Positions 2,197 to 42,722 of a stretch of 44,509 nucleotides of DNA are shown here, piece by piece. The notes below the pieces were generated by a model, which saw nothing but the letters and a program-made list of their open reading frames with translations, was not told the DNA's origin and searched no databases. The stretch is from a virus. The stretch is from UHGV virus genome UHGV-0169625; one strand, given 5' to 3'. The stretch's first letter is position 1. Each line of letters begins with the position of its first letter. The translations under genes and the position numbers were made by a program.

Positions 2197-2225
2197 ACTA
2201 TAATAGTTAGCTATTCAGGTGTCAA
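2197..2225 (-). promoter_or_regulatory. sigma70-like promoter (leftward) with embedded palindromic operator
   Basis: minus strand TTGACA (2225-2220), 17-nt spacer, TATAGT (2202-2197); plus strand 2200-2217 reads ATAATAG-ttag-CTATTCA; about 57 nt upstream of the GTG start at 2133. Confidence 0.5.
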
Positions 2226-2229
2226 CACT

Positions 2230-2385
2230 TTATTTAAACGTTTCTTTTGTCATACGGATAATTTTCGCCGACTCGTCTCTAATTACCATACTGAATACAC
2301 GGTATACGGCTTTGCTCCGGCCTAGCTTTGCTCCGTTTCGGTGTTGTTGTAGATAGCTTTTATGCAGTTCTTGAATCGTGCTCAT
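2230..2385 (-). CDS. hypothetical small protein (51 aa)
   Basis: ATG at 2385 overlaps stop of upstream nuclease gene (ATGA), GGAGGA SD 7 nt upstream; track ORF 2230..2415 trimmed to this start. Confidence 0.4.
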   Translation of the reverse strand: MSTIQELHKSYLQQHRNGAKLGRSKAVYRVFSMVIRDESAKIIRMTKETFK

Positions 2386-3647
2386 TCCAAATCCTCCTCT
2401 GTTACCTGATTCCACTCAGGACGTTTGTCGTCCGCCGTTGCGACACATGGTGCACCCGGCTTACGTGTGATAAATGGCTCAAGCGCTGCCATCTCATCTG
2501 CCGAAAGAACTTTTGCCGCCTCCGTAGGGGACATCAATACCTCTTTTTTGAGAATGTCTCCGTGCGACACTTCAATCGCATCGGCGTCTTTCCACGCACG
2601 ATTACCAGGACGACCTTCTACCAGCTTGTACCCCGGTACTTTTTTACCGGAATGCAACGCAGCAGCCATCGCTTTCTCAACCTTGTCGATGTGCTGGCGC
2701 AACAACGGCAACTTCTCATACTCAGCTACAAGTTGCTCTGGCGTAAGTTCCAGTGCAAAGTCGTCTTCCAGTTCTTCCGCCAGTACATCGTTAACGGTTT
2801 TTGTACGCGCGGCGCACTGTTCCGAGAACCGACACCACTGACAACCGTCGACAGACGGCCGGAAGTCCGACGCTTTCAGGTTCTTCTTACCTCGGGAATA
2901 AGCATCAAGCGCTAACAGTGCTCGTTTCTGCGCGAACTTAGCGAACAGTTCCAGGCCTTCAACCGAGATGTCCCACTCCGACGCACCGCCCGCGTACGGC
3001 TGGAAGATGACCAGACGAACAGTCGTTATGTTATAACGTCTCTTGAGCCGGCGATAAACACCGAGAGCATAGAGCATAAGCTGCTTGTTTTCTTTCGCTT
3101 CGACACGATGCCGTCCAGTTTTCAGGTCGCCGATGATAAGCATGTGCTCGTCGGTGTTAGCCAGTTCCTGGACGGCAACAAGGTCAGCAGTTCCGAACGT
3201 CTCAACGCCTTCATACCCCGGATGCAACACCTCAGTAAGATTGACACGCATCTCGAGCTTCGCATAAGTCGCTACGTCGATAATCGGTTTGCAGTAGTCC
3301 GTGTACTTGCGCACCTGCTCAATCATGTCCGCCGTAATCAGTACCGCGCCTTTCATCGGACTGATTAGTGCCTTAATCTGACCTTTACCTTCATCCAGCA
3401 CGTAAGCGCCGACTTCACGCTCTAAAGGCAACGCAGTGCCTTTGATGTACTGGTTTAGATGGACCTCAGCTATGGTGTGCATGGCTGTACCTAATACAGC
3501 GGCTTTACCCGACGTGTTAGGAATATCTTTTTCACAAGCCAGAGATGCACTGCACGCCAGCCACTTTTTAGCGCCTGATGGTGACAGTAATGCGTGAACA
3601 TCGTTATTGCCACCGCGTTCCTTTAAAATCATACCCTGTTCTCCCAC
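2382..3647 (-). CDS. PD-(D/E)XK nuclease, Cas4/RecB-like (DUF2800-type) with 4-Cys cluster
   Basis: 421 aa; IIGDLKTGRHRVEAKENKQLMLYALG matches the D...ExK...QxxxY nuclease core; N-terminal Cys plus C-terminal CQWCRFSEQC resemble the Cas4 Fe-S cluster ligands; ends in acidic tail VTEEDLE. Confidence 0.6.
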   Translation of the reverse strand: MGEQGMILKERGGNNDVHALLSPSGAKKWLACSASLACEKDIPNTSGKAAVLGTAMHTIAEVHLNQYIKGTALPLEREVGAYVLDEGKGQIKALISPMKGAVLITADMIEQVRKYTDYCKPIIDVATYAKLEMRVNLTEVLHPGYEGVETFGTADLVAVQELANTDEHMLIIGDLKTGRHRVEAKENKQLMLYALGVYRRLKRRYNITTVRLVIFQPYAGGASEWDISVEGLELFAKFAQKRALLALDAYSRGKKNLKASDFRPSVDGCQWCRFSEQCAARTKTVNDVLAEELEDDFALELTPEQLVAEYEKLPLLRQHIDKVEKAMAAALHSGKKVPGYKLVEGRPGNRAWKDADAIEVSHGDILKKEVLMSPTEAAKVLSADEMAALEPFITRKPGAPCVATADDKRPEWNQVTEEDLE

Positions 3648-3901
3648 TGGTCAATTAAATGCCTGGTCTTGTGGTCGCAATGTAAGGCCCACCCATACAT
3701 CGACTCGAAGACATAAAAGTCAGGTTTGGCGAAAGTTGTGCGCTTAATCTGTGACACGTGACGGCCAATATCTTTATGCCGTGGTACTTTGCCTAAGTAC
3801 GCCATCTCTTCCATCTGGTGAGCACCGGACGGCGCACGCAATAGCCATAGCGCCTCTGTGTTATCCCGCCTGTCGACGGCGCGGTAGAGTTGGTAAATCA
3901 T
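3629..3901 (-). CDS. hypothetical protein (90 aa)
   Basis: track ORF in minus-strand operon, overlaps start of downstream nuclease gene by 19 nt; no recognisable motif. Confidence 0.35.
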   Translation of the reverse strand: MIYQLYRAVDRRDNTEALWLLRAPSGAHQMEEMAYLGKVPRHKDIGRHVSQIKRTTFAKPDFYVFESMYGWALHCDHKTRHLIDQWENRV

Positions 3902-3944: not shown

Positions 3945-4463
3945 TTATTCTTCTTCGAAATACTTGTTCTTGATTGCCATCAGGCGTTCCAGGTACTCGG
4001 CCAGGTCTTCGTCTTTAATCGCAGCAATCTTCATCTTCTTACCCGTGAACTCCTCCAGCAGTTCATCAGAATCGTCGCACGCGGCGTCGCTCGGGCCTTC
4101 GTTAATCGCATCGTCGATAGCCTGAATCTGGTCACGAAGAGACTGATAATCGACTTCCTTATCCTCTTCCGGCTCTGGCGTTGGTTCCTCTACTTTAGCT
4201 TTACGCGGCTTGCGTTTCGGCTTCTCTTCCTCCGCAGGTTTAGTGTCGACGATGTCTTCACCTTCAACCGGGATTTCTTTCGCCTTCTCGACTTCTTCAA
4301 GTGCTTTAGCCAGTTCTTTTTTAACTGTCTCTACCCCAGTTACCGCGACGTCAACAGTCAATTCACCTACAGATTTGCTAGTCGGTTGTTTCACACTGTT
4401 TGCAGCAATCAGTTCGTGGGCGACTACGAAACGTTCCAGTAATACTAAGAATTTCTCTAACAT
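3945..4463 (-). CDS. hypothetical acidic protein (172 aa)
   Basis: ATG at 4463 with GAGGAGAG SD; first gene downstream of leftward promoter 4495-4523; Glu/Asp/Lys-rich, ends YFEEE. Confidence 0.5.
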   Translation of the reverse strand: MLEKFLVLLERFVVAHELIAANSVKQPTSKSVGELTVDVAVTGVETVKKELAKALEEVEKAKEIPVEGEDIVDTKPAEEEKPKRKPRKAKVEEPTPEPEEDKEVDYQSLRDQIQAIDDAINEGPSDAACDDSDELLEEFTGKKMKIAAIKDEDLAEYLERLMAIKNKYFEEE

Positions 4464-4494: not shown

Positions 4495-4523
4495 ACTATA
4501 ATAGTGAACTATTCACATGTCAA
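4495..4523 (-). promoter_or_regulatory. sigma70-like promoter (leftward) with embedded palindromic operator
   Basis: minus strand TTGACA (4523-4518), 17-nt spacer, TATAGT (4500-4495); plus strand 4498-4515 reads ATAATAG-tgaa-CTATTCA. Confidence 0.55.
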
Positions 4524-4541
4524 TGGGCTTTTCTAAAATAA

Positions 4542-4559
4542 TTAATATGGTACTATTCA
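4542..4559 (+). promoter_or_regulatory. operator-like site overlapping extended -10 (TGgTACTAT) upstream of the HTH regulator gene
   Basis: TTAATAT-ggta-CTATTCA (degenerate copy of the recurring palindrome); TACTAT at 4551-4556 preceded by TG; weak -35; about 30 nt upstream of ATG 4588. Confidence 0.35.
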
Positions 4560-4587: not shown

Positions 4588-4803
4588 ATGCAACCATCTG
4601 AACTAGGCATCCGTGTAGAAAAACGCCGTAAAGAACTCGGCATCTCCCAGCGCCGTCTGGCGGTGCTGACCGGGGTTTCCCAGGGCGCAATTAACCAGCT
4701 GGCACTTGGGGTAACCCAGGACGTCCGCCCGGCAACGCTGTTTAAACTGGCGGAAGTGCTGGAGGTAGACGCCAAGTGGCTGGCGCTAGGTGAAGGGGCT
4801 TAA
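4588..4803 (+). CDS. XRE-family (Cro/CI-type) helix-turn-helix transcriptional regulator
   Basis: 71 aa; ISQRRLAVLTGVSQGAINQLALG is a classic HTH_3 signature; AGGAG SD; the only plus-strand gene inside the minus-strand replication block, divergent from operator-bearing promoters. Confidence 0.8.
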   Translation: MQPSELGIRVEKRRKELGISQRRLAVLTGVSQGAINQLALGVTQDVRPATLFKLAEVLEVDAKWLALGEGA

Positions 4804-4820
4804 CGCCCCTTTCTTTTTAC

Positions 4821-7119: not shown

Positions 7120-7353
7120 TTATTCCAGGTCTTCTAAAGTAGCGGTCATTCCGCGAACTTCAGCAACGGCGCTATATTTCCCGCCAACATTTTTCACGAC
7201 ACCAGATTTAACCAGCACCTTCAACGACCCTTCAATAATGGCTGAACTATAGTACTTAAAATAACTACGGCGCAAGTCAATAACGCTACACGACCCTTTT
7301 TTACGTGTTAACGAAACGACTGCTGTAAATACGCGTGACTGAAACTCGGTCAT
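7120..7353 (-). CDS. hypothetical protein (77 aa), C-terminus LEDLE
   Basis: track ORF, start overlaps upstream gene stop; no domain recognised. Confidence 0.45.
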   Translation of the reverse strand: MTEFQSRVFTAVVSLTRKKGSCSVIDLRRSYFKYYSSAIIEGSLKVLVKSGVVKNVGGKYSAVAEVRGMTATLEDLE

Positions 7354-7520
7354 TTCACGTTCTCCTTAATCCATGCTTCCACTTTCTCCGGGTCAAACGT
7401 ACCTGGCTGACGACGGCCCATAATGCGGATGCAGCAATCCGGGAACTTCCCGCTCTTTAACCAGTTATTCAGCGTGCGACGGGTAACCCCGATACGCTCA
7501 GCTACCTCATTCTGTGTCAT
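7350..7520 (-). CDS. AlpA/Xis-like HTH DNA-binding protein
   Basis: start moved to ATG at 7520 (MTQNEVAERIGVTRRTLNNWLKSGKFP...EAWI) because the predicted -10 overlaps the track start at 7553; GAGGG SD. Confidence 0.6.
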   Translation of the reverse strand: MTQNEVAERIGVTRRTLNNWLKSGKFPDCCIRIMGRRQPGTFDPEKVEAWIKENVK

Positions 7521-7552: not shown

Positions 7553-7581
7553 AGTATACATTGCGAATAATGGGAAATCAA
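7553..7581 (-). promoter_or_regulatory. sigma70-like promoter (leftward) for the minus-strand early operon
   Basis: minus strand TTGATT (7581-7576), 17-nt spacer, TATACT (7558-7553). Confidence 0.45.
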
Positions 7582-7960
7582 ACATAATCGCACCTATTGA
7601 CATTATGAAAATCTTCGTTTAAGGTGCTTCTATATCTTAGTTACTTTGATTCCTGTTCACCTTGTAAAACCGCTTAAAACGCAGCTGCGCGCAGCGCAAG
7701 CAAAGTGTTAAGCGAAAGTTTACTGAACACGAGAATTATCGTAACTTTCCTTCCTAAGTATCTCCGGTTGCCCTGGGCAAGCTCTATTCACATCGGCAGC
7801 ATATCTCTTAAGTATCTGATTTTCTTAATGTGCCGTAGATTCGCAACCGTAAAAATGTAACGATTATTGGGCAGGCTTAGGGCCTGCCCTTTAGTTACCA
7901 AGTAATAAGAATAAAGGCACAACCTTCCCAGAAGAATCACAACGGCAACGTAACTATCTC

Positions 7961-7989
7961 TTGCACGCCCCAACATAATAGGATACTAT
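7961..7989 (+). promoter_or_regulatory. sigma70-like promoter (rightward) with embedded palindromic operator
   Basis: TTGCAC (7961-7966), 17-nt spacer, TACTAT (7984-7989); 7975-7992 reads ATAATAG-gata-CTATTCA; about 35 nt upstream of ATG 8024. Confidence 0.5.
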
Positions 7990-8023
7990 TCACTTATCGA
8001 AACGAGACAGAGGAGTGAGGGTT

Positions 8024-8980: not shown

Positions 8981-9181
8981 ATGAGTAAGTGGATTAAGTG
9001 CAGTGAGCAGATGCCCGCTCCTTTCTCTCATGTACTTGTGACCGATGGGGGAGAGGTTGAGATTAAATGGTTCGATGATGATTCGGATGAGTGGGATAGT
9101 TGGGATGAATTCAACTCTGTCATAGACAACGAGGATATAACGCACTGGAGGAAATTGCCTAAACCGCCGAAACTGGTGTAA
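8981..9181 (+). CDS. DUF551-like small protein
   Basis: 66 aa; MSKWIKCSEQMP...ITHWRKLPKPP resembles the DUF551 pattern (W-I-x-C ... THW-x-x-LP-x-PP) from recollection. Confidence 0.5.
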   Translation: MSKWIKCSEQMPAPFSHVLVTDGGEVEIKWFDDDSDEWDSWDEFNSVIDNEDITHWRKLPKPPKLV

Positions 9182-9316
9182 CAGGTCAATAGGTTACTAT
9201 TTGACTGAGTGACTTACGCTGCTACACAGCAGCGTACAACTTTAGATTAGTGTCGTCAAAAAGCGACACTTTCACCGAACGCAACAATCGAAGCGACTAT
9301 TGCAGGAGATGCAACA

Positions 9317-9494: not shown

Positions 9495-9523
9495 TTGCAC
9501 GCTAGGATAGAATAGGCTACTAT
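9495..9523 (+). promoter_or_regulatory. sigma70-like promoter (rightward) with embedded palindromic operator
   Basis: TTGCAC (9495-9500), 17-nt spacer, TACTAT (9518-9523); 9509-9526 reads AGAATAG-gcta-CTATTCA. Confidence 0.5.
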
Positions 9524-9554
9524 TCATTTACACGAACGAGAGGAGAGACAGAAG

Positions 9555-11249: not shown

Positions 11250-11558
11250 TTGGATAAATTTACTGAAACAGTGACGGGGTGGCTTCTCGCCGCCGCACTG
11301 GTCGGTGGATTGGTCGGGCTAAGACAACATAAAAAGTCTATATCCGGGCCGATTGACGGACTGGTATTTCTTCTCACCGGCTTCGCGTGTGCCATTTTCG
11401 GCGCACCTCTTGCGGCTCAATGGTTCGGTATTACTGGTGAGCGCGAGATAGCTGGCCTCGGATTCATCATTGCCATTCTCTGGATGCCTATCTATTCCCG
11501 CCTTTCTGGCATCGTATCGGGCGGCGATATTGCCCGCCCAGGAGGACCGCATGACTGA
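11250..11558 (+). CDS. holin (three predicted TM segments), TTG start
   Basis: 102 aa; hydrophobic stretches GWLLAAALVGGLVGL, LVFLLTGFACAIFGAPLAA, GLGFIIAILWMPIY; immediately upstream of endolysin. Confidence 0.6.
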   Translation: MDKFTETVTGWLLAAALVGGLVGLRQHKKSISGPIDGLVFLLTGFACAIFGAPLAAQWFGITGEREIAGLGFIIAILWMPIYSRLSGIVSGGDIARPGGPHD

Positions 11559-11823
11559 GCTATTCTGGTTTGTCGTAATGCTGGCGATGGGCGCTTCGTC
11601 CCTGTTCAACGTGTATAATGAACACGTGGACGACGGGCTATTTGGGCGTGTGCTCTATATCCTGACTGCTATCGTCTGCGCCGCCGGGTGTATCCACCTG
11701 TTACAAGGCAGCATGTCACCTACGTTGCCCGAGACGTTAATCACATTAGTTGCGCTGCGTCAGATTCGTCAGGCGTGGCTGTCGTATGGAGGACATAAGT
11801 GTGTCTCGAAATATTTCAGATAA
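11551..11823 (+). CDS. holin/antiholin-like membrane protein (two TM segments)
   Basis: start trimmed to ATG 11551 (overlaps holin stop); LFWFVVMLAMGASSLF and VLYILTAIVCAAGCIHLL. Confidence 0.45.
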   Translation: MTELFWFVVMLAMGASSLFNVYNEHVDDGLFGRVLYILTAIVCAAGCIHLLQGSMSPTLPETLITLVALRQIRQAWLSYGGHKCVSKYFR

Positions 11824-12286
11824 TGGATTGCATTTCACTGCCGCATTTGAGGGGTTCCGTGGAACTGCGTATCGTGCTACCCCGAATGAGAAGTACCTGA
11901 CTATTGGTTACGGGCACTACGGGCCAGACGTAACGCCCGGAAAGACCATCACGCCGGGACAAGGACTCCTGCTACTGAATCGCGATATGGCTAAGGCCGT
12001 AGCTGCGGTTGACGCAGCAGCACACCATTCACTGGCACAGGCGCAGTTCGATGCAGTGTGCGACCTGGTGTATAACGCGGGTGCTGGTGTGATTGCAGCT
12101 ACTACAGGCACGGGTAAGGCGCTGCGTTCCGGTGATATTGCGACTCTGCGGGATAAGCTGGCGCTGTTCATCAACCAGAACGGCAAACCGTTACTTGGCC
12201 TGCGTCGCCGTACAGCCGGTCGTTTGGCGCTGTTCGACGGTAAACCGTGGCGGGAGGCGGAAGCTATCGGGAGGGCTGTTAAATGA
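11786..12286 (+). CDS. endolysin, phage lysozyme (GH24-like)
   Basis: AAFEGFRGTAYRATPNEKYLTIGYGHY matches the lysozyme catalytic region (E...D...T); start set to first ATG 11786, in-frame GTG 11801 has a better SD. Confidence 0.8.
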   Translation: MEDISVSRNISDNGLHFTAAFEGFRGTAYRATPNEKYLTIGYGHYGPDVTPGKTITPGQGLLLLNRDMAKAVAAVDAAAHHSLAQAQFDAVCDLVYNAGAGVIAATTGTGKALRSGDIATLRDKLALFINQNGKPLLGLRRRTAGRLALFDGKPWREAEAIGRAVK

Positions 12287-12549: not shown

Positions 12550-12571
12550 ATCTATTTTCTGCAATGACTAG

Positions 12572-12600
12572 TTGACTATTACCCTCGACCTTATTATATT
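12572..12600 (+). promoter_or_regulatory. sigma70-like promoter
   Basis: TTGACT (12572-12577), 17-nt spacer, TATATT (12595-12600); about 30 nt upstream of ATG 12634. Confidence 0.45.
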
Positions 12601-12633
12601 TACTCCATCGACAACGAGAACGGAGTAGAGAAG

Positions 12634-12831
12634 ATGAGTAACGTATCGACGATAGAAATAACCGAGGAACTTGAAGCTAAATGCATCGCGTCTGCTATGG
12701 GTGGGGATTCGGTGGAAAAACTACAGATGAGGGCCGCTGCGGGCTACATACGTAGAGCTAATTCCGCGATGACTGATGTTTTACGTAAACGTTACCTCGT
12801 GAAAGCGTTAGAAATCCTGGAGAATAACTAA
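12634..12831 (+). CDS. hypothetical protein (65 aa)
   Basis: track ORF with GGAG SD. Confidence 0.45.
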   Translation: MSNVSTIEITEELEAKCIASAMGGDSVEKLQMRAAAGYIRRANSAMTDVLRKRYLVKALEILENN

Positions 12832-12980
12832 TGAAAATCACGGATATCGAAGCATTCAAAGACGCACAACTGATGGCGCGCATCGCCGTTAGTAACCTGA
12901 GCAACAGCATTCCCGCGGACGCGTTCTGGTTCGCTGCAATGCAGACACTGAAAGCAGCTTATGCAGGAGAGAAGAAATGA
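12831..12980 (+). CDS. hypothetical small protein (49 aa)
   Basis: ATG overlaps upstream TAA; below track cutoff. Confidence 0.3.
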   Translation: MKITDIEAFKDAQLMARIAVSNLSNSIPADAFWFAAMQTLKAAYAGEKK

Positions 12981-13135
12981 GCGAACACGGTGAAGTAAGC
13001 CAACCCTTACGAGTAGGCCGTAAAGTCAGTCACACCCCGTTCCCGACACGCGAGGAACTGATGAAACGTAACAGTTTCCCGGGACCGGACAAGAACAAGT
13101 ATCTCAATCGCATGTGGGGAGAGCGTAAAGAATGA
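12977..13135 (+). CDS. hypothetical small protein (52 aa)
   Basis: ATGA coupling at both ends. Confidence 0.3.
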   Translation: MSEHGEVSQPLRVGRKVSHTPFPTREELMKRNSFPGPDKNKYLNRMWGERKE

Positions 13136-13350
13136 AAAAGTATAAATTCATAATTGGTGACAATCTTATGTATAACTCAACCCATTTGCGCCGTGTCCGT
13201 TGGTACAATCTACTATTTGTACGTGCAGGATTAGTTAACGTTATTGAGTGGGAGGGCATTGAGTCTGACGTTAAGGTGGCGGAGGGTTTTGCGCGCTTGT
13301 ACTTCAAGAAACGCGGCATGACACCGCATGTTATGGGGCACGAGTTATGA
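13132..13350 (+). CDS. hypothetical protein (72 aa)
   Basis: track ORF, coupled start. Confidence 0.45.
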   Translation: MKKYKFIIGDNLMYNSTHLRRVRWYNLLFVRAGLVNVIEWEGIESDVKVAEGFARLYFKKRGMTPHVMGHEL

Positions 13351-13592
13351 CCGACCGTGAATACGAAAAGATGATGGTAGAGGCTGTTAACGGCGGCGTA
13401 GACATCGGTCGCGTGATGCACGTCCTGAATACTAAAATCGCGGTAGCGGAGCAAATGGTTGAGTCGCTCTATGAGACACGCCGTGAACTGATTAACCGCT
13501 TCAACCTGAACAAGTGCGAACATAAGTTCGACTACAATCCGAAAGATATGTGCGGCCAGTGTGTTAAATGTGGGGTACAGAGACATGCCTAA
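13347..13592 (+). CDS. hypothetical protein with C-terminal Cys cluster
   Basis: 81 aa; CEHKFD...CGQCVKCG. Confidence 0.45.
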   Translation: MTDREYEKMMVEAVNGGVDIGRVMHVLNTKIAVAEQMVESLYETRRELINRFNLNKCEHKFDYNPKDMCGQCVKCGVQRHA

Positions 13593-15423: not shown

Positions 15424-16670
15424 GTATTCAGCTATCCGCTCCTCAGGCGCTGTTCCTTAACTGCGATAACAAATACAAGGCCTATGTCGGTGGCTTCGGT
15501 AGCGGTAAGACGTTTGTTGGCTGTCTGGACCTGCTTACATTCATGCTTAAGCACCCCGGTACGCGCCTTGGTTACTTCGGCCCGACCTACCCGGCTATCC
15601 GCGACATCTTCTACCCGACATTCGAGGAAGCTGCTAACCTCCTGGGCCTTGATGTGCTGGTTAAATCCGGCGACAAAGAGGTCGTCGTTGCGAGAGGTAA
15701 GACAGTAATCGGTACAGTAATCTGCCGTTCGATGGATAACCCAGGCTCTATCGTCGGTTTCAAAATAGCCGCGGCGGTCGTTGATGAACTGGACGTTCTG
15801 AGCCGCGAGAAAGCGGAACTGGCGTGGAACAAAATCGTAGCCCGTATGCGTCTGGTTATCCCTGGAGTGGTAAACCACATCTCCGTTACCACGACACCGG
15901 AGGGATTCAAGTTCGTCTATGCCAAGTTCAAAGAGAACCCGACACCTAGCTACTCGATGGTGCAGGCTTCCACACACGAGAATGCGCGGTTCCTCCCGCC
16001 GGATTACATTAGCTCGCTGACCGAGACTTACCCCGCGCAGCTGATTAACGCGTATCTTAACGGGGAGTTCGTCAACCTGACATCCGGCAGCGTGTATTAC
16101 GCCTACGACCGGCGCAAGCACCGCAGCAAAGAGACAATTCAACCTGGTGACACTTTGTACATCGGCCAGGACTTCAACGTTACGAAGAATGCAAGCGCCG
16201 TGTATGTGCAACGTAAAGACGGCTGGCACGCAGTAGCAGAACTGAAAGGTCTGTTCGATACGCCGGATACCGTGCGCGTAATTACAGAGAAGTGGAAGTC
16301 ACAAGGCCACCGCATCGTCGTTTACCCCGACGCCAGCGGCAAGAACCGCAAGACCAACTCGGCGTCCATCTCTGACATCGCCTTACTACAGCAGGCTGGT
16401 TTCGATGTACGGGCTAAATCAGCCAACCCGCCAGTTAAAGACCGTGTTTTAGCAGTGAATACCGCACTGGAAAAAGGTAAGCTGTGGGTTAATGACCACT
16501 TATGCCCTGAGATAGCGAAGACGCTGGAGCAGCAGGCTTACGACGATAACGGGGAGCCATCCAAAGACGGCATCATAGACCATATGGCGGATGCTCTCGG
16601 CTATCCTGTAGTTTACGAGATGCCGGTGGTTAAACCAGTAATCAACATCCCGGTGACTTTTGCACTTTAA
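15420..16670 (+). CDS. terminase large subunit
   Basis: 416 aa; Walker A GGFGSGKT near N-terminus; precedes portal. Confidence 0.85.
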   Translation: MSIQLSAPQALFLNCDNKYKAYVGGFGSGKTFVGCLDLLTFMLKHPGTRLGYFGPTYPAIRDIFYPTFEEAANLLGLDVLVKSGDKEVVVARGKTVIGTVICRSMDNPGSIVGFKIAAAVVDELDVLSREKAELAWNKIVARMRLVIPGVVNHISVTTTPEGFKFVYAKFKENPTPSYSMVQASTHENARFLPPDYISSLTETYPAQLINAYLNGEFVNLTSGSVYYAYDRRKHRSKETIQPGDTLYIGQDFNVTKNASAVYVQRKDGWHAVAELKGLFDTPDTVRVITEKWKSQGHRIVVYPDASGKNRKTNSASISDIALLQQAGFDVRAKSANPPVKDRVLAVNTALEKGKLWVNDHLCPEIAKTLEQQAYDDNGEPSKDGIIDHMADALGYPVVYEMPVVKPVINIPVTFAL

Positions 16671-18174: not shown

Positions 18175-18196
18175 AGCCCCGAAAGGGGCTTTCTTA
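18175..18196 (+). terminator. rho-independent terminator-like hairpin
   Basis: stem AGCCCC/GGGGCT, loop GAAA, then TTCTTAT. Confidence 0.5.
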
Positions 18197-18200
18197 TAGT

Positions 18201-19277
18201 ATGCTATTAACTTTAGCGTCACAGGGTTTATCTATGAGCTTACTTACATCCCTAATCAGCCACCAGATATGGCTGCAACGCACCGCATCCGGTGAAGTGA
18301 AAGACCTCGCACCGTTCCTTCAGGAGATGCGGGACGAAATCAAACGGCAGGTGCTGTTATTCGGCGACGACGGGCGAAGCACCGCGCGACTGAATAAACT
18401 GTTACGCGACCTTGAAGAAGCACTTACCGCGCTTACCGGTGACTGGCAAACGAAGCTGACAGAAGACCTTAAGGAGCTGGCCGCGTATGAGGCTGAGTGG
18501 AACGTAAAGACACTGGCAACCAACGTTAACGCGGAATTTGTTACGCCTACCGCCGAACAAGTGTGGGCCGCTGCTGAGTTTCAACCGCTCTCACTGAGCG
18601 ACAAGCCAGTTGATTTCGTGAAGCTGATGGAAGGCTGGGGTGAAACGGAAGTATCGCGCCTTGTAACCGGCGTTAAGATGGGCTTTGTACAAGGTCAAAC
18701 CACACGGCAGATTGTTAAGAATGTTGTAGGTGCTGGTGGGCTGGCGGACATCTCTGAACGCAACGCGGCTACGGTAATCCGCACCGCGCTTTCCCATGTA
18801 TCAAACGAAGCCCGTAACGAGACGTACCGTCAGAACGACGACATCATCGAGAAATACGAGTGGGTGTCAACGCTGGACAGCCGTACCAGTACGATTTGCA
18901 GAGCCAGAGACGGAATGACATGGGAAATTGGTAAAGGGCCGATGCCCCCCGCCCATCCGAACTGTCGGTCGTGCACGGCGCCAGTAATCAGTTCCGAGTT
19001 CGACTTCCTAGATAAAGGTGCAAAACGCGCGGCTAAGGGTGCGGACGGCGGTATGCAGGTAAGCGCAGACACCACCTATTACGAGTTCCTGAAACAGCAA
19101 CCGGCATGGTTCGTGGATGAAGCACTCGGCCCGGTGCGGGGTAAGATTTTCCGCAACAGCGGTATATCGCCGGAAGAGTTTCGCGTAATATCTGTAGATG
19201 GTTTCGGGAATCCGCTGACGCTTAAGCAGATGGCGGAACTCGATAAACGTGTTGCTGATTATCTGAAAGGGGAATAA
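18201..19277 (+). CDS. head morphogenesis protein (Mu F / SPP1 gp7-like)
   Basis: 358 aa, directly after portal; by position and general similarity to minor head protein F pattern, not searched. Confidence 0.5.
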   Translation: MLLTLASQGLSMSLLTSLISHQIWLQRTASGEVKDLAPFLQEMRDEIKRQVLLFGDDGRSTARLNKLLRDLEEALTALTGDWQTKLTEDLKELAAYEAEWNVKTLATNVNAEFVTPTAEQVWAAAEFQPLSLSDKPVDFVKLMEGWGETEVSRLVTGVKMGFVQGQTTRQIVKNVVGAGGLADISERNAATVIRTALSHVSNEARNETYRQNDDIIEKYEWVSTLDSRTSTICRARDGMTWEIGKGPMPPAHPNCRSCTAPVISSEFDFLDKGAKRAAKGADGGMQVSADTTYYEFLKQQPAWFVDEALGPVRGKIFRNSGISPEEFRVISVDGFGNPLTLKQMAELDKRVADYLKGE

Positions 19278-19765: not shown

Positions 19766-19828
19766 GTGCCTGTGATTATTCCAGTTATTCCACTAAATTG
19801 TAAATGTTGGAATAAACTATTCGAATAG

Positions 19829-19857
19829 TTGACTTTTCACTGAAAATATGATAAGCT
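19829..19857 (+). promoter_or_regulatory. candidate promoter abutting a 16-bp perfect palindrome
   Basis: TTGACT (19829-19834), 17-nt spacer, TAAGCT (19852-19857); AACTATTCGAATAGTT palindrome at 19815-19830 overlaps the -35. Confidence 0.35.
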
Positions 19858-19864
19858 CCACCTG

Positions 19865-20035
19865 AGCTTGTGAAGTATGAACAAGCGACCGCGGCGCGGG
19901 CAGGTAACGGAGCGGGACGTAAGTCCTGAGTGTAGTTACGCTGACGCGTTCGGAAGGGCCATACTCTATTGCTTGTGTAAAAAGTAACTGGTTTACTGAG
20001 ATTACGCCGTTTCTATGTTTAAATGATAAGGACTA
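19865..20035 (+). ncRNA. candidate structured leader/ncRNA upstream of spanin genes
   Basis: about 170 nt without SD-led ORF between candidate promoter and terminator 20038-20062; several local dyads (CTTGT...ACAAG, CCGCGG, ACGCGT). Confidence 0.3.
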
Positions 20036-26965: not shown

Positions 26966-27015
26966 ACTCTCTTAAATCTGGCTATGCCTGACTCTCTTAA
27001 ATCTGGCTATGCCTG
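26966..27015. repeat. perfect 25-bp tandem duplication (2 copies)
   Basis: ACTCTCTTAAATCTGGCTATGCCTG at 26966-26990 and again at 26991-27015; spans the stop codon of gene 26972..27175. Confidence 0.9.
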
Positions 27016-27175
27016 ACTCGTTAATGCTGCCTATTTCAAAGAAGCTGCGATATTTAGGCGAATACATTCTTACGTCGCCGTTCTCTAGGGTGACCCCTTC
27101 ATATACAGCGCCTACTTCGAATCCATTTTTCTCCGCGTACGGACTCACATCGGTGCATTCATACATATCTTTCAT
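26972..27175 (-). CDS. hypothetical protein (67 aa), antisense island
   Basis: track ORF; last 14 codons are encoded inside the tandem duplication. Confidence 0.4.
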   Translation of the reverse strand: MKDMYECTDVSPYAEKNGFEVGAVYEGVTLENGDVRMYSPKYRSFFEIGSINESGIARFKRVRHSQI

Positions 27176-28302
27176 CCCAGCATCTCCGGTGAAATAGTTA
27201 AACGTGCGACCTCGCCATATTCGGCACTATAGGTAATTACATTTGCGCTACGGCCTGACATCCATCCACCGCGCGAGGCGTAGGCGTCTTTAGCCGCCAG
27301 GGTGCGGTGTTGCTCAACAATCATGTTACGGCTTTCCACAATCTTCTGATGGTGGAGGTGGCCTACGTGGGCGTAGCTGTAAACGCTTTCGCCAAATGCT
27401 TTGCGGAACTTGGCAATCATAACCGGTTCGATAGCGTCGAATCGTGCCTTATGCCCGTGGTGAAAGAACAGCGTCGTTTTGCCGTGTTGCACCATCTTGT
27501 AAACATCTGGCGACGTATCGACGAACACACGAGGCTCATTGTCGTACAGCGTACTAAACATCTCAGCTAACCAAATCATTCCGCTTTCGTCGTGGTTTCC
27601 TTGCACGATAAGCAAGCGAACATTTTTATGCTTAACCAGCGCCATACCGACAACACGGCGGACCATACGAATCATGTAGCGGACAAGTTTCTGATAGCGA
27701 GTGTCCGCATCAAGGGCGTGACCGCTTGCAGGCGTAACGGCAACCAGACTGTCGAAGTGCGCGAAGTCGCCCAGCAGGTTAATAACTCCAGTTCCTGCAT
27801 CCGGCGCTTTCTGGAACGCCGCATCGAACCAGCGAGAAAACAGGTCTTCCGCAATCTTCATATCCCAGTCGTCGCCACTCTCGTCGGCCCAGGCCAGCAT
27901 ACCAAGATGGAAATCAGATACAGTGTAAAGATTGAGTAGTTTATCGTCACGTTTGGTGCGAACGGCTTTAACTGGTACAACGGGAGTAATCTCCGACTTC
28001 ATGCCTTCGATTACGGCTTTCATCAACTCGACCTGACGTTCAGCGTCAGTGTCTGTCTTAACCCATTGCAACTTAGTGTTGCCGAACTCGTCCACAAGCG
28101 ACGACGTTCCTTTAATCTTGTAGCCGTCCGGGACAAGATGGCTAACGTCACGACCGTGACCTACGCCTTTCTTCGCCAGCTTCGCTTTACGGATACGAAT
28201 AACGCGGTCTGAGATGCCGTATTTACGGGCGATGTCTACATTCTTCATCCCGGCGTTCAATTCTTCCTGTAACTGTTCGTCGGTTATTTTCTTCTGGGCC
28301 AT
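27172..28302 (-). CDS. HTH domain fused to calcineurin-like metallophosphoesterase
   Basis: 376 aa; N-terminal NVDIARKYGISDRVIRIRK (HTH); metallophosphatase motif series SDFHLG (D-x-H), GDFAHFD, GNHDE, HHGH, GHLHH. Confidence 0.6.
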   Translation of the reverse strand: MAQKKITDEQLQEELNAGMKNVDIARKYGISDRVIRIRKAKLAKKGVGHGRDVSHLVPDGYKIKGTSSLVDEFGNTKLQWVKTDTDAERQVELMKAVIEGMKSEITPVVPVKAVRTKRDDKLLNLYTVSDFHLGMLAWADESGDDWDMKIAEDLFSRWFDAAFQKAPDAGTGVINLLGDFAHFDSLVAVTPASGHALDADTRYQKLVRYMIRMVRRVVGMALVKHKNVRLLIVQGNHDESGMIWLAEMFSTLYDNEPRVFVDTSPDVYKMVQHGKTTLFFHHGHKARFDAIEPVMIAKFRKAFGESVYSYAHVGHLHHQKIVESRNMIVEQHRTLAAKDAYASRGGWMSGRSANVITYSAEYGEVARLTISPEMLG

Positions 28303-28367: not shown

Positions 28368-28694
28368 CTATTTACTTTCTGCGCCTATTGCCCATCCAGT
28401 CATTACCATTTGCAGACGGGTGGCTGTCAGTAGGCTGTAAAACGCGTCTCCGTTTTTCTCTACCGAACGTATTACCGTGTATGTTACGGCTTGCGGAGGC
28501 AGGCCCGATTTACCAACCTCTACGGCGGACTCGCACTCGCGAACTGTAGAGTCCTTAAATGCCTTTACAAGAGTAGGGTTGGCTTTCTCAAGCACACCAG
28601 AAGTCATAAGAACAGATTCACTAAATACCTGTTCGCACGGGGACCCAAAAGTAGCAAAAGACATAAACCCCAGAGCTAGTACTAATTTACGCAT
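28368..28694 (-). CDS. exported protein with signal peptide, first gene of antisense island
   Basis: 108 aa; MRKLVLALGFMSFATFG signal peptide; GAGGAA SD; about 22 nt downstream of leftward promoter. Confidence 0.5.
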   Translation of the reverse strand: MRKLVLALGFMSFATFGSPCEQVFSESVLMTSGVLEKANPTLVKAFKDSTVRECESAVEVGKSGLPPQAVTYTVIRSVEKNGDAFYSLLTATRLQMVMTGWAIGAESK

Positions 28695-28712: not shown

Positions 28713-28751
28713 TTACAAGTGAATAGTACCCTATTATATTGGGGTGCGCAA
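28713..28751. promoter_or_regulatory. overlapping divergent promoters sharing one palindromic operator
   Basis: leftward: TTGCGC (28751-28746), 17 nt, TACTAT (28728-28723); rightward: TTACAA (28713-28718), 16 nt, TATATT (28735-28740); 28720-28737 is the inverted copy of ATAATAG-N4-CTATTCA. Confidence 0.45.
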
Positions 28752-39059: not shown

Positions 39060-39197
39060 TTACTCTTCTGATAACTTCTCCAGTACAAACGCCAGTTGCG
39101 CATTAGCGGCATATCTTTGCTGGCGTAGGCGTAGAACCTCCTCCTCGAGTTCCTTGATACGTTTTTGCAATGCTGGAATCGGGGCTATGATGTTCAT
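39060..39197 (-). CDS. hypothetical small coiled-coil protein (45 aa)
   Basis: ATG overlaps stop of TOPRIM gene (ATGA); GAGGAAAT SD. Confidence 0.35.
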   Translation of the reverse strand: MNIIAPIPALQKRIKELEEEVLRLRQQRYAANAQLAFVLEKLSEE

Positions 39198-39709
39198 CTG
39201 GTAAATTTCCTCGCAAGATACGTTATTTCTTCTTCACAAAGTTCATCGAGGTCGTTAGATACAAATCCTCTGGTGAATGTTTTGCTGAACTTTAAGCCCG
39301 CTTTATCATTGTCACCGGCGCACACCCATTCATACGGCAAAAGTGACATTTGCTGCCGTAAGTCAGCTGGTATGTTCGACCCCAATGCGCTAACTGCATT
39401 AAACCCGCAATTCATCAAAGCAACAGCTTTAAATATGCTTTCGGTAACAAATACCACCCCGCTACTTGGCAAATACTCAAGTCCCCATAAACACGGCCTT
39501 GTTGTTCGGGTAAAGTACCGCGCATCCTTTGGGTTCTTGCAGTTCTTTTCAGCATGTGGCTTGTAATGCTGGTACCCGCGTAGCTTACCGTCAAAACCCC
39601 ACAGGTAAAACGTAGCTACTCCAGGGCCTAAGACTACACGTAAACGGTCCGCGTCAAAACCTCGTGACAGCAGATGCGCCTTAAGTAGTAACTCCTCGCC
39701 GTCCATCAT
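39194..39709 (-). CDS. TOPRIM-domain protein (primase-like)
   Basis: 171 aa; VFVTESIFKA (conserved Glu) and CAGDNDKAG (DxD) match TOPRIM motifs. Confidence 0.5.
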   Translation of the reverse strand: MMDGEELLLKAHLLSRGFDADRLRVVLGPGVATFYLWGFDGKLRGYQHYKPHAEKNCKNPKDARYFTRTTRPCLWGLEYLPSSGVVFVTESIFKAVALMNCGFNAVSALGSNIPADLRQQMSLLPYEWVCAGDNDKAGLKFSKTFTRGFVSNDLDELCEEEITYLARKFTR

Positions 39710-41049
39710 TTCTTACCTCGTCTCTTCATGTAATTAAGCAACTCTTCCTGTACCGATTTCTTCTCGTCCGTACGCGCGGCAACAACCTCATCCAGTGTGT
39801 CTTTAGCGACGATGTGATAGAGGAACACCGGGCGCTCGTGCCCCGCCTGCTTCTGGCGAACAGGGCCTATGCGCTCGACAACCTGCAAATAGTGTTCAAG
39901 GTTCCAGCCTTGTGAGATGAACGCCAGATGATGCCCGCCGTCCTGTAAATTCAAACCATGACCGGCTGACGCAGGGTGCACGCATAAAATCTCGATTTCA
40001 CCACGGTTCCATGCTTCCATCTGCTTGTTCCCCTTAGCGCCTTTGGCGAACGCCTGTGCCTGTGGGAATCGCTTAAGGATACGCTCCAGTTCGTGTTTAA
40101 ACTGATAGGCTACCAGCAACGGCTCACCCTGCAACTCCTCAACAATCGACTCGAGCGCATCCAGTTTCGTGTCGTGCACTTTCTCCCAGTCTTTGGTCGC
40201 TTCGCCATCCGGCCCTGACACATACACGGCACCGGATGCAATCTGCAAACATTTCGACGTCTTCGCCGCGGCGTTAGCCGCTTCGACTTCTCCGCTCTCC
40301 AGCTCAGCGAATAACTTCTCCTCCATATCGATGTACGCCTGACGCGCTTTCTTCGGCAGGTCGATTTCAACCGGCACAATAATCGGCGCTTCACAACCGA
40401 ACCACTCGGCAGGGTCGATGGTCAGGCTGATGTCTTTCATCTTCTGATGAATTTCATTATCTGCACCTGGTCGCGCATGATATTCACGCGCCATAGCCGA
40501 CTTACCTTTCTGTACCGAGTTAAACCAGCGGTCTGTGAATGCCGTATACGAAGAGCCGAGGCGCTCGCCAGCGTCGATAAACCAGTTCTGACCCCACAAG
40601 TCTTTGAGGCCGTTTGGTGACGGTGTGCCAGTCAGGTTGATGAAACGCTTAACCTTTCCGAACGCAACCTTGCTGAGCGCCTTTGCCCGCTTGCTACCAC
40701 CCGAACGGCTGCGGAACGATTTAAGCTTCGTGCTTTCATCGGCAACGATAACCGTAAAAGGCCAGTCGTCTTTGCCGTAGTAGTCAATTAGCCACTCGAT
40801 AACTTCGTAGTTAGTGCACACCACGTTAGCATCTGACTCCAGCCCCCCGATGGCGCCCTTCTCCGCACCACATGCATCTAACAAACCCAGACAACCGGAA
40901 TCGCCCTGTCGTGTTGGCGTTAGTTGCCAATTCGCCAGCCTAAATTTGGGTTTTTTGTCAACACCACGTTCCCATCTCACTCCCGGGCCGCGAGGGGGCG
41001 CTTCTCCGAACCAGTTGCATCTACGACACGCAGACAAGGGAATTGCCAT
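39706..41049 (-). CDS. SNF2-family helicase, C-terminal ORF (lacks Walker A)
   Basis: 447 aa; VIVADESTKLK (motif II-like), LTGTPSPNGLKDLW (motif III); N-terminal 50 codons read a diverged duplicate segment in an alternative frame. Confidence 0.6.
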   Translation of the reverse strand: MAIPLSACRRCNWFGEAPPRGPGVRWERGVDKKPKFRLANWQLTPTRQGDSGCLGLLDACGAEKGAIGGLESDANVVCTNYEVIEWLIDYYGKDDWPFTVIVADESTKLKSFRSRSGGSKRAKALSKVAFGKVKRFINLTGTPSPNGLKDLWGQNWFIDAGERLGSSYTAFTDRWFNSVQKGKSAMAREYHARPGADNEIHQKMKDISLTIDPAEWFGCEAPIIVPVEIDLPKKARQAYIDMEEKLFAELESGEVEAANAAAKTSKCLQIASGAVYVSGPDGEATKDWEKVHDTKLDALESIVEELQGEPLLVAYQFKHELERILKRFPQAQAFAKGAKGNKQMEAWNRGEIEILCVHPASAGHGLNLQDGGHHLAFISQGWNLEHYLQVVERIGPVRQKQAGHERPVFLYHIVAKDTLDEVVAARTDEKKSVQEELLNYMKRRGKK

Positions 41050-41273
41050 TTCTCTTGTTCAGCGGGCCACGTACCGGACGCAACACGTAACGGGGCAAGG
41101 ATTAACACGCGGTCCTCTTCCGTAAGCTGCCCGTTGCGGAACAGGCGGTTGAGCACCCACATAGTGGAGGAGGTTTTACCTCCCCCCATTCCGCACCAGA
41201 TATTACAGCGCGGGTGTTGCAGCATGAACGAAGTCATGAGCTTCTGGTATTCGCGCCTTTGAAACTTACTCAT
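40977..41273 (-). CDS. SNF2-family helicase, N-terminal fragment with Walker A
   Basis: 98 aa; CGMGGGKTS Walker A and LILAPLRVASGTWPAEQEKW; terminates at TGA inside a diverged duplicate segment, different frame from the C-terminal ORF. Confidence 0.5.
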   Translation of the reverse strand: MSKFQRREYQKLMTSFMLQHPRCNIWCGMGGGKTSSTMWVLNRLFRNGQLTEEDRVLILAPLRVASGTWPAEQEKWQFPCLRVVDATGSEKRPLAARE

Positions 41274-42219
41274 TTACCGCCCCCATGAATGCCTTTATAA
41301 ATTCAGCGGCTACTTGCGGGACGATGGCATTGCCATAACCGCGCAATCGTCCCACTCTGGCGGGTATCCCATTAGCCAGCGGGAATGCGCCGGGTTCAAC
41401 TGGCCTGAATTTTCCATCCCGGCATCCGAGCCAGTCAGTATCTGACCAGAAGCCGTGATGCGGATTGGTTGTGTTATTTTCAGACCCTGCTCCGTCGAGT
41501 AGTCCAGCCTGTCGAATGTTCTGTCTTTTCCGTCCTTGCGAATAACTGTCTCTCCGCTCCCTCTGTAATCGTTCGCTGTTGGGGTCGGCCATGCCAAAAG
41601 GTATTGTGCGTGCGTCGCCAGATTGCAATTCGCATTCGGTCTGTTGAAGCGTTTTTCCGCGTAGGCTTGTGGGTCTTTCGCTCTGCTGTTGTTGTCGTCC
41701 GCAACCGCTGGCGTCGGCCAGGTTGTGCGCGCCGAAGAACAGTCTGTCGCGTTTGTGCGGTGCGCCGACGCTACAAGCTGGGAGTACGGCAAACCCGACG
41801 GCGTAGTCTTCTCCTTCCAGGTGAGTTTGTAAATCGCACATCCACGATTTTGCAATTGCTGGCGCAACCTGCTCCCCAAAGAGGACTGGAGGTCGGCACT
41901 CGCTGATAAGGTCGAGGAACACAGGTGCGAGGTGTCTCTGGTCGAACTGTCCGAGTTGCTTTCCCGCCGCGCTAAACGGTTGGCAAGGCGGGCTTCCCGT
42001 CCAGAGAGGCGCATCTTCCGGAACTCCCGCAAGTCTGAGCGCGAGAGGCCAGCCGCCGATACCAGCGAAAAAATGACACTGGGTGAACCCGTCAAGGTCT
42101 TCTGGCTTAACTTCGGTAATGCTTCTTTCATCTACAACTCCAAAAGGTATGTGACCCTGTTTTATCAACTCACGCAGCCACGCGGCTGCGCCTTTATCCC
42201 ATTCATTGTAATAGTTCAT
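41266..42219 (-). CDS. DNA (cytosine-5) methyltransferase, orphan
   Basis: 317 aa; FAGIGG (motif I), PPCQPFSAAGK (motif IV PCQ), FGEQV (ENV-like), GNAIVPQVA (motif X); no adjacent restriction endonuclease. Confidence 0.8.
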   Translation of the reverse strand: MNYYNEWDKGAAAWLRELIKQGHIPFGVVDERSITEVKPEDLDGFTQCHFFAGIGGWPLALRLAGVPEDAPLWTGSPPCQPFSAAGKQLGQFDQRHLAPVFLDLISECRPPVLFGEQVAPAIAKSWMCDLQTHLEGEDYAVGFAVLPACSVGAPHKRDRLFFGAHNLADASGCGRQQQQSERPTSLRGKTLQQTECELQSGDARTIPFGMADPNSERLQRERRDSYSQGRKRQNIRQAGLLDGAGSENNTTNPHHGFWSDTDWLGCRDGKFRPVEPGAFPLANGIPARVGRLRGYGNAIVPQVAAEFIKAFMGAVNE

Positions 42220-42407
42220 TTCGCCACCAGAACTAACTCTTTACGACCGAACGCCGTAACGTTACCGGTTACATCTTCGATAACCAGTTTACCGTTTGAC
42301 TCGACGTACACCGTATCAACGGCAACAGGGTGGCGGGTCTTAACGCTGAAAATCATGTCGCCTGGTACGATGTCACGTGCTGGCTTGCGGTCATATTCGT
42401 GTTTCAT
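42216..42407 (-). CDS. hypothetical protein (63 aa)
   Basis: track ORF, AAGGAA SD, first gene downstream of promoter 42441-42469. Confidence 0.45.
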   Translation of the reverse strand: MKHEYDRKPARDIVPGDMIFSVKTRHPVAVDTVYVESNGKLVIEDVTGNVTAFGRKELVLVAK

Positions 42408-42437: not shown

Positions 42438-42722
42438 TTAACTATAATAGCTCGCTATTAGGTCGTCAACCTGTTTAAACGAACCAACGACAAAAACATT
42501 TGCACCACGTTTACGCATCCGCTCATGCTCGCGTAACTGGTGCGGGTCTGGCTTCGTGTTTTCGTCTTTTTTAACCTCGACGAACCAGATGATGCCGCCG
42601 GGGAGAATTACCAGCAGGTCGGGAGCGCCGGAGCGCCCCTCGTAGGAAAGTTTACGAACGAGGCCCCCAATGGCCTCGAATCGCTCTTTTGCGTATTTCT
42701 GAATCTTGCCTTCCGGTGTCAT
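42438..42722 (-). CDS. VRR-NUC domain nuclease
   Basis: 94 aa; PDLLVILPGGIIWFVEVKK gives the PD...(D/E)xK core. Confidence 0.6.
   Translation of the reverse strand: MTPEGKIQKYAKERFEAIGGLVRKLSYEGRSGAPDLLVILPGGIIWFVEVKKDENTKPDPHQLREHERMRKRGANVFVVGSFKQVDDLIASYYS
42441..42469 (-). promoter_or_regulatory. sigma70-like promoter (leftward) with embedded palindromic operator, inside 3' end of VRR-NUC gene
   Basis: minus strand TTGACG (42469-42464), 17 nt, TATAGT (42446-42441); plus strand 42444-42461 reads ATAATAG-ctcg-CTATTAG. Confidence 0.5.

Follow-up and report, generated by a model that had tools for sequence, protein, structure and literature searches.

The window analysed here is the whole of the 44,509-nucleotide (nt) virus genome UHGV-0169625, and our subject is an 18-base-pair (bp) dyad that recurs at its promoter-like sites, together with the gene for a small helix-turn-helix (HTH) protein of the XRE family beside which two copies of the dyad lie. 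This gene (4588..4803, plus strand) codes for a proposed repressor, a 71-amino-acid (aa) protein of the XRE/HTH_3 kind; a bidirectional terminator-like hairpin comes after the gene, at 4792-4812. A preliminary description of the window had placed the gene between two copies of the dyad, but both copies are upstream of it, in a 124-bp divergent intergenic region. The first, O1 (ATAATAGTGAACTATTCA, 4498..4515), matches the 18-mer ATAATAG-N4-CTATTCA exactly and occupies the spacer and -10 edge of a leftward promoter (-35 TTGACA at 4518-4523, -10 TATAGT at 4495-4500) which scores 11/12 and serves a minus-strand operon of a 172-aa gene, a 90-aa gene and a DUF2800/PD-(D/E)XK exonuclease gene (3945-4463, 3629-3901 and 2382-3647). 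The second, O2 (TTAATATGGTACTATTCA, 4542..4559), has a degenerate left half and lies over the -10 TACTAT (4551-4556) and extended -10 TG (4548-4549) of the rightward XRE promoter. The centres of O1 and O2 are 44 bp apart, and an alternative XRE promoter, TTCACA-16-TAAAAT, is found at 4512-4539.

On sequence grounds, we assign the window to Kagunavirus (Guernseyvirinae) as the genome of a virulent Escherichia coli phage. Its 3.9-9.7 kilobase (kb) segment has 89-92% identity to Escherichia Kagunavirus phages, e.g., phiWAO78-1 and Bas73, with several hundred Salmonella Jerseyvirus genomes as more distant relatives of that segment, and its largest open reading frames (ORFs) are tail, tape-measure, tailspike and helicase-primase genes. 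The complete annotated relative phiWAO78-1 (83 annotated genes) lacks an integrase, a second or CI-type repressor and an RNA polymerase gene, and PHROG scans of 40 window ORFs gave neither an integrase nor a partner repressor. Members of the group are lytic siphoviruses of approximately 44 kb, and the fBC-Eco01 paper reports zero lysogeny genes (PMC9825357). For comparison, we used 80 IMG/VR loci gathered by XRE homology and several complete genomes.

All seven copies of the dyad named in the preliminary description are found where it put them. The 18-mer is exact at 2200, 4498, 7975 and, on the minus strand, 28720; the copy at 9509 has one mismatch (AGAATAG), while those at 4542 (left half TTAATAT) and 42444 (right flank AG) have two each. 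Comparison with shuffled sequence bears out the recurrence, with 15 matches at up to three mismatches versus 2.6 in shuffles (maximum 8). Against first-order Markov controls, 4, 5, 8 and 15 matches were observed at 0, 1, 2 and 3 mismatches, where 0, 0, 0.16 and 2.3 are expected. The symmetric core AATAG-N4-CTATT has seven exact sites in the window (0.04 expected) and 12 at up to one mismatch (1.0 expected). The seventh exact core, at 9186-9203, was absent from the preliminary list, as were the one-mismatch cores in intergenic gaps at 12565, 18193 and 19822. The ideal form of the dyad is close to TGAATAG-N4-CTATTCA, with AATAG-N4-CTATT as its core.

The copies sit within sigma70-type promoter-like sites in three registers, with dyad centres at approximately -18.5, -12.5 and -33.5. 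Class L (2200, 4498 and 42444; leftward) reads TTGACA/G, 2 bp, TGAATAG-N4-CTATTAT, AGT: the dyad, centred near -18.5, fills the 17-bp spacer, its last three bases start the -10 TATAGT, and the hexamers TTGACA/G-17-TATAGT give 11/12 matches. Class R (7975, 9509 and 28720 on the minus strand) reads TTGCAC/TTGCGC, 8 bp, ATAATAG-nnTA-CTATTCA, with its centre near -12.5, a weaker -35, and a -10 TACTAT made from the right arm and the last two spacer bases; 4542 and 9186 are weaker members of this class. The third register (12565 and perhaps 19822) has a -35 TTGACT across the dyad centre and right arm, with the centre near -33.5. In classes L and R the -35 and -10 hexamers are 17 bp apart, within the 16-18 bp typical of sigma70-dependent promoters, with two exceptions, 4542 (extended -10) and 9186 (no -35).

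Strong copies coincide with promoter-like sites of the -35/17 bp/-10 kind and with nothing else, although 9186 has no recognisable -35. The promoter assignments of the preliminary description stand at 2200, 4498 and 42444 (TTGACA/G-17-TATAGT, leftward) and at 7975, 9509 and 28720 on the minus strand (TTGCAC/TTGCGC-17-TACTAT). The exception is the TTGCAC -35 that it gave to the 4542 promoter: this is lacking, and an extended -10 (TGgTACTAT) is present instead. The left arm of this copy deviates (AATAT) because the promoter uses that extended -10. Apart from the dyad, class L, class R and the class that overlaps the -35 share no element, and their registers are 6 and 15 bp apart. The dyad, and not one promoter layout, is therefore the common element.

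The promoters outside the XRE region serve a wide range of genes. Of the leftward ones, the putative operator at 2200..2217 fills the spacer of a promoter (-35 TTGACA at 2220-2225, -10 TATAGT at 2197-2202) with a minus-strand Gp2.5-like gene for a single-stranded-DNA-binding protein (1507-2133) downstream. That at 42444..42461 (ATAATAGCTCGCTATTAG) fills the spacer of another (-35 TTGACG at 42464-42469, -10 TATAGT at 42441-42446) whose minus-strand unit consists of a 63-aa gene and DNA methyltransferase, helicase and primase-domain genes (42216-42407, 41266-42219, 39706-41049 and 39194-39709). Two rightward promoters carry putative operators over their spacers and -10 elements. One is at 7975..7992 (-35 TTGCAC at 7961-7966, -10 TACTAT at 7984-7989) and serves a small-gene run from approximately 8015; the other, at 9509..9526 (AGAATAGGCTACTATTCA; -35 TTGCAC at 9495-9500, -10 TACTAT at 9518-9523), serves small genes and then the holin (11470-11823) and endolysin (11750-12286).

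The last strong copy, at 28720..28737, covers the spacer and -10 of a minus-strand promoter (-35 TTGCGC at 28746-28751, -10 TACTAT at 28723-28728) from which an antisense island within the tail module is read (28368-28694; 27172-28302, a metallophosphoesterase/DNA repair exonuclease; and 26972-27175). Its orthologs are at 15683 in phiWAO78-1 and 27267 in the Jerseyvirus PVP-SE2, and a weak opposite promoter at the same site, TTACAA-16-TATATT, faces the tail chaperone gene. The preliminary description had spoken of an early regulon that includes the antisense tail island. The island does belong to the set, but "early" is too narrow a word because the units range from replication and recombination operons to the holin/endolysin unit.

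The exact core at 9186..9203 (TCAATAGGTTACTATTTG) is intergenic, with a run of small genes as the unit served, and has a -10-like TACTAT (9195-9200) with no recognisable -35; 28 Kagunavirus loci retain it. On its 3' side stands a conserved hairpin (cgctgctacacagcagcg), and the sequence directly 5' of it (GGTGTAACAGGT, 9175-9186) is single in the window and tandemly duplicated in several further Kagunavirus loci (L010, L025, L027 and L033). The weaker copy at 12565..12582 (ACTAG-TTGA-CTATT) follows a terminator and precedes small genes leading to the terminase; it lies over the -35 TTGACT (12572-12577) of TTGACT-17-TATATT (12572-12600). At 19822..19839, a weak copy (AATAG-TTGA-CTTTT) lies over the -35 TTGACT (19829-19834) of a promoter-like site in a late-region intergenic gap. 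Whether the 19822 copy belongs to the dyad set is uncertain. The site is also present in phiWAO78-1, at 6175, and its equivalent in fBC-Eco01 has been listed as the host promoter HP1 (PMC9825357).

The copy at 18193-18210 (TATAG-N4-CTATT) is relic-like and points into a terminator. In phiWAO78-1, class R cassettes at 4198, 6084 and 15683 precede the small antisense genes gp04, gp07 and gp27 of the structural module, and the relic in the window is in the place of the first of these, as if an inserted gene had been lost.

In each promoter class, one arm of the dyad is placed where sigma70 has no sequence requirement, and this dispensable half-site is retained at every site. The partner half-site and the fixed 4-bp spacer are superfluous for sigma70 and would therefore mark the operator of a dimeric regulator, a proposal of the preliminary description that survived every test run. 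A simpler account would need no dedicated factor: the dyad could be part of a duplicated promoter cassette carried with inserted genes, or an AT-rich symmetric spacer intrinsic to strong promoters. Such an origin would suit the fact that one arm always doubles as part of the -10 hexamer, and also the approximately 60 bp that class R promoters have in common beyond the dyad (CCCCAAyAT in the spacer, a similar 5' leader and ribosome-binding site), with phiWAO78-1 having three further such cassettes before antisense inserted genes. We nevertheless consider it unlikely. Both arms persist even in cassettes whose spacers are unrelated (9509, 4542, 9186 and the Jerseyvirus types), the spacer arm has no known sigma70 role yet is invariant while N4 varies, other clades alter both arms together, and the three layouts described above have nothing but the dyad in common.

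Two further explanations of the symmetry were rejected. As RNA hairpins, the 18-mers would be of low stability (-1.4 to -7 kcal/mol), and they are upstream of the inferred transcription starts; a search of Rfam gave nothing in the window at gathering score. As bidirectional promoters, the sites at 4498 and 7975 have no usable -10/-35 pair in the opposite arm, and only 28720 has a plausible opposite promoter.

Conservation separates the arms from the centre. AATAG-N4-CTATT is the top palindrome in both Kagunavirus and Jerseyvirus loci and occurs at orthologous promoters in both genera. Over 48 loci of the two genera, its half-sites are near-invariant while the central N4 is only 50-80% conserved at several sites. 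For example, 38 Kagunavirus loci retain O1 but vary in its N4, and the 42444 site has an ortholog in 44 loci of the two genera with N4 only 50-80% conserved. The sequence of O2 is almost invariant across the 38 Kagunavirus loci. The contrast between arms and N4 is moderate and not decisive because background divergence is low. An information-content profile of pooled promoters, in which sites were picked by the core itself, was used only for the variability of N4 and the outer spacer. The dyad also moves relative to the promoter elements, since the PVP-SE2 copy at the tail island is 3 bp nearer the -35, with a different -10 (TATTAT).

More distant relatives keep the arrangement while varying the letters. 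phiEap-2 has 10 copies at up to one mismatch (1.3 expected), at promoters of all classes. The Cornellvirus genomes SP-031 and TS6 have AWTAS-N4-STAWT (5 versus 0.6 expected) at the same promoter set, including the XRE-adjacent one, and one IMG/VR locus (L055) has AATAC-N4-GTATT, with both arms changed. In the clade of loci L068 and L074, TTAGC-N2-GCTAA occurs three times in equivalent promoter geometry, and a one-mismatch copy of it lies on the -35 of the XRE promoter.

These variants bear on the question of a host protein, i.e., a transcription factor common to E. coli and Salmonella that binds the dyad and ties the promoters to a host signal. The E. coli TrpR operator, ACTAG-N4-CTAGT, is presumably the nearest look-alike, with equal spacing and 4/5 half-site bases. 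At the weak 12565 copy, Kagunavirus has ACTAG as a perfect arm and Jerseyvirus has its mirror image, CTAGT, the mismatch there being in the opposite arm (AATAG-TTGA-CTAGT); we take each of these arms to match a trp operator half-site. It also speaks for a host factor that the core is equal in E. coli, Salmonella and Enterobacter phages with differing XRE proteins. However, in approximately 50 genomes essentially all strong copies have A and not C at half-site position 2; strong copies are ATAG/CTAT throughout, so only the weak 12565 copy has a CTAG arm. Cornellvirus, which also infects Salmonella, uses a different dyad, and because the dyad differs again in the L068/L074 clade, a phage-encoded factor fits better. 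We therefore regard control by a host factor as very unlikely.

Among phage proteins, the XRE protein is the natural candidate. It scores 47.1 bits with Pfam HTH_3 (PF01381), whose curated threshold is 23 bits (E=2.5e-12, residues 11-65), and its closest solved relative by phmmer against PDB sequences is 434 Cro (E=2.2e-6, residues 6-68). A single-sequence AlphaFold2 (AF2) model has a predicted local distance difference test score (pLDDT) of 85.9, with helices at 5-17, 21-28, 32-39, 48-57 and 62-65. Foldseek places this model nearest to 434 Cro, P22 c2 and SinR at template-modelling (TM) scores of 0.77-0.83 (2cro, 0.77/0.83; 3cro, 0.79/0.85), and its structural neighbours include the restriction-modification C proteins C.BclI and C.AhdI (TM 0.77-0.80). 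As modelled, the protein is 434-Cro-like, with a five-helix fold superimposable on 434 Cro. 434 Cro, P22 c2, SinR and the C proteins are all dimers that act on dyads.

The genomic setting of the gene points the same way. The gene has the same divergent position in all clades compared, and putative O1 and O2 overlap -10 and -35 elements of both its promoter and that of the divergent unit. One strong copy and one conserved weak copy between the XRE gene and a divergent operon is, by analogy, the classic layout of autoregulation. Helix 3 keeps the pattern [ST]-Q-[GS]-x-[IV]-x-[QH] while the remaining protein has diverged to 39-49% identity, and the pattern is compatible with a family of related half-sites, A-W-T-A-S. 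Residue-level covariation between helix 3 and the half-site was tried and set aside, as the mapping is not one-to-one; it is kept as clade-level support only. PHROG scans of 30 small-gene and replication-region ORFs found no other transcription regulator.

We therefore need to weigh two phage candidates named at the outset, the XRE protein and an AlpA-like protein. The latter is a 56-aa HTH_17 protein (7350..7520, minus strand), encoded by the first gene of the helicase-primase operon. Its HTH_17 domain speaks for it, and it could be imagined on the dyad as a repressor or as an RNA polymerase loader after the fashion of AlpA and the Q antiterminators, which recognise elements inside promoters. 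The gene is also undetectable in clades without enrichment of the exact AATAG-N4-CTATT core. However, the Kagunavirus contig L025 lacks the AlpA-like gene yet has the XRE gene and all eight sites; phiEap-2 lacks it yet has its 10 near-consensus copies at promoters; and the Cornellvirus-like SP-031 and TS6 and the L068/L074 clade lack it and have related dyads at equivalent places. Its own promoter (TTGATT-17-TATACT, 7581-7553) has no copy of the dyad, and the protein has no evident dimerisation element and no solved homologue by sequence. With the gene missing from dyad-bearing clades, we disfavour this candidate and judge its role at the dyad highly improbable. The XRE protein is favoured instead, being 434-Cro-like and syntenic in every clade, with two copies in its own promoter region.

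L025 shows what can stand in the AlpA-like gene's place: at 12559-13230, a 149-aa gene and a 47-aa Cys-rich gene replace the AlpA-like gene and a 77-aa gene, with a different palindrome of 10-bp arms upstream, TTGAAGTACC-N8-GGTACTTCAA.

Our interpretation is that the 18-bp dyad is probably the operator of the phage's own 71-aa 434-Cro-like XRE protein, which would turn down most of the phage's promoters. An XRE dimer would bind the dyad with one subunit per half-site. Because the dyads occupy promoter cores in all three registers, a bound dimer would exclude host RNA polymerase, and none of the registers is a usual activator position; the suggested sign of regulation is repression. As for timing, host polymerase would fire the dyad promoters upon phage entry, and accumulating XRE protein would then repress the operons for replication and recombination, those of small genes, and the antisense island in the tail module. 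The strong O1 would shut the divergent exonuclease operon first, and the conserved weak O2 would limit the XRE gene itself at higher XRE concentration. Cro acts in this way in 434 and lambda, where it has a CI partner; here, with neither a CI repressor nor an integrase in the phage, the feedback or shut-off circuit would be Cro-only.

Several points weigh against this interpretation. Many class R promoters resemble copies of one cassette of approximately 60 bp, so part of the motif's recurrence is common descent. Every related locus was retrieved via XRE homology, so the constant presence of the XRE gene is partly built into the sample. The XRE protein is only 48% identical between Kagunavirus and Jerseyvirus though the core dyad is common to both, and helix 3 differs between them at 4/7 positions (SQGAINQ versus SQSLITH); the AlpA-like protein, in contrast, is 80-88% identical between these genera, which share the exact core. 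Finally, we found no transcription-start mapping, footprint or binding study for Guernseyvirinae in the literature.

The difference in helix 3 between two genera with the same dyad could also be taken to mean that another phage protein, e.g., a small unannotated one, binds the dyad and that the role of the XRE protein is narrower; most small early ORFs are indeed without annotation. No such protein was identified, however, and small-gene content varies widely by clade while the dyad system and the XRE gene persist. The 7-4-7 geometry of the dyad suits an XRE dimer as well, given the published structures of the 434 and P22 proteins, and we hold a different phage protein to be distinctly improbable.

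If the XRE protein is the regulator, a broader joint reading can be sketched, which we offer tentatively and with considerable doubt. One Cro-only regulator would be wired to nearly every host-type promoter of strictly lytic Guernseyvirinae through a portable promoter-operator-leader cassette of approximately 60 bp. New antisense genes in the structural module would bring or gain the cassette and so join one global timer. In addition, O1 might activate the alternative XRE promoter at 4512-4539 in the manner of a CI site, since the O1 centre is approximately 40 bp upstream of that promoter's start.

Known systems match the arrangement in some features and depart from it in others. Like 434 Cro, the XRE protein is 71 aa long, and the two align end to end at approximately 40% identity with an equal five-helix fold. 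The sites resemble 434 OR/OL in having a 14-bp dyad core with conserved outer bases and a variable centre, and in that copies of unequal quality lie over divergent promoters beside the regulator gene. They differ in half-site (AATAG here versus ACAA) and in distribution (at least eight promoters around the genome versus two clusters of three operators), and the present phage is strictly lytic, without a partner CI, an integrase or an immunity region. Because no partner CI-type repressor or integrase was found, the system is Cro-like but not a lambdoid immunity region.

The P22 C2/Cro operators are 18 bp long with a 7-4-7 layout, AnTnAAG-N4-CTTnAnT, and a non-contacted 4-bp centre. The dyad here (ATAATAG-N4-CTATTAT) likewise has 7-bp arms ending in AG/CT around a 4-bp centre, and the XRE protein has the c2 N-terminal domain among its neighbours in both sequence and structure; the half-site sequence differs, however, the c2 sequence match is weak (E ~0.006), and P22 is temperate where this phage is lytic. 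For one small regulator with sites throughout a genome, placing separate units on one signal, parallels are offered by the dispersed operators of P1 C1 and the "stoperators" of mycobacteriophage L5 gp71. Both of those proteins are lysogeny repressors whose sites lack symmetry and, in L5, act within transcribed regions, whereas here the sites are symmetric and in promoter cores, in a phage without lysogeny. C proteins, small XRE dimers and structural neighbours of the window's protein, achieve concentration-dependent autoregulation by binding a pair of dyads, unequal in strength, that precede the C gene. Their sequence identity to it is only 22-28%, and they control one operon, not a genome-wide promoter set.

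The motif has been seen before. In fBC-Eco01, seven "phage RNAP promoters" (PP1-PP7) were found with PHIRE, and their consensus, tgAATAGTa-ccTATTat-T, is this motif, with PP5 equivalent to O2 (PMC9825357, including its supplementary table). That paper attributes the motif to an RNA polymerase encoded by the phage and gives no operator or repressor reading (PMC9825357). The Golestan paper likewise reports seven PHIRE promoters, the PVP-SE2 record (NC_073186) annotates phiSITE promoters at several orthologous places, and an operator reading appears in none of the three sources. We rejected promoters for a phage RNA polymerase: the 83 annotated genes of phiWAO78-1 include no RNA polymerase, and the sites carry ordinary -35 and -10 elements, except that 4542 (with its extended -10) and 9186 have no -35. 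Temporal RNA-seq of the Kagunavirus K1B4 shows one HTH gene among four early genes, at a resolution below that of start sites and with identifiers that cannot be mapped to window genes. The sighting of the motif itself is therefore not new; an operator reading with the XRE protein is the best-supported interpretation of it, with the AlpA-like protein disfavoured.

Some other elements were noted along the way. Cornellvirus SP-031 and phiEap-2 have a second recurrent palindrome, GAATAA-N-TTATTC (often GGAATAAnnTATTCC), clustered in intergenic gaps near genes for lysis and the head; its positions include 25438, 26069 and 26596 in L003 and 11501, 11874, 12637 and 12670 in L004. A similar element (GGAATAAACTATTC) at 19809-19822 of the window adjoins the weak dyad at 19822. 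Another regulator, perhaps one that acts late, may bind GAATAA-N-TTATTC. At 19829-19960, in the late region, the TTGACT promoter-like site is followed by approximately 120 nt of conserved ORF-free sequence (ctccacctgagcttgtgaagtatgaacaagcgaccgcgg...), and L025 has the same module beside its helicase-primase operon (13270-13400). This sequence, which has no Rfam family match, may encode a small RNA or represent a non-coding module that is mobile.

A 420-bp ORF-free gap (7553-7975) separates the AlpA-like gene from the 7975 promoter and contains a GC-rich palindrome at approximately 7683-7699, a terminator-like hairpin at 7869-7889 and a 10-nt inverted repeat (7671-7680/7705-7714); an origin or a non-coding RNA may be located there. 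Just 5' of the terminase, the ORF at 14338-14598 matches phrog_268, which has no assigned function, and phiWAO78-1 annotates a NinH-like DNA-binding protein at about that position. Judged by its position, the product of this ORF could be one more small DNA-binding protein among those of the late region.

Cro-type repressors acting on promoter dyads are textbook biology, and the circuit proposed here would be an ordinary phage control circuit; the dyad system opens no new kind of biology. Its interest is in the phages concerned. Guernseyvirinae (Kagunavirus, Jerseyvirus) are among the phages isolated most often of those proposed for use in therapy and food safety, and their gene control is essentially unstudied. 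If the interpretation is true, the published label of "phage RNA polymerase promoters" would be corrected, and the phages would offer a compact repressor/operator pair for engineering, of which related clades hold natural variants. A single 71-aa protein and a single 18-bp site would then explain the turn-down of most host-type promoters in these genomes, giving a simple model of their lytic programme.

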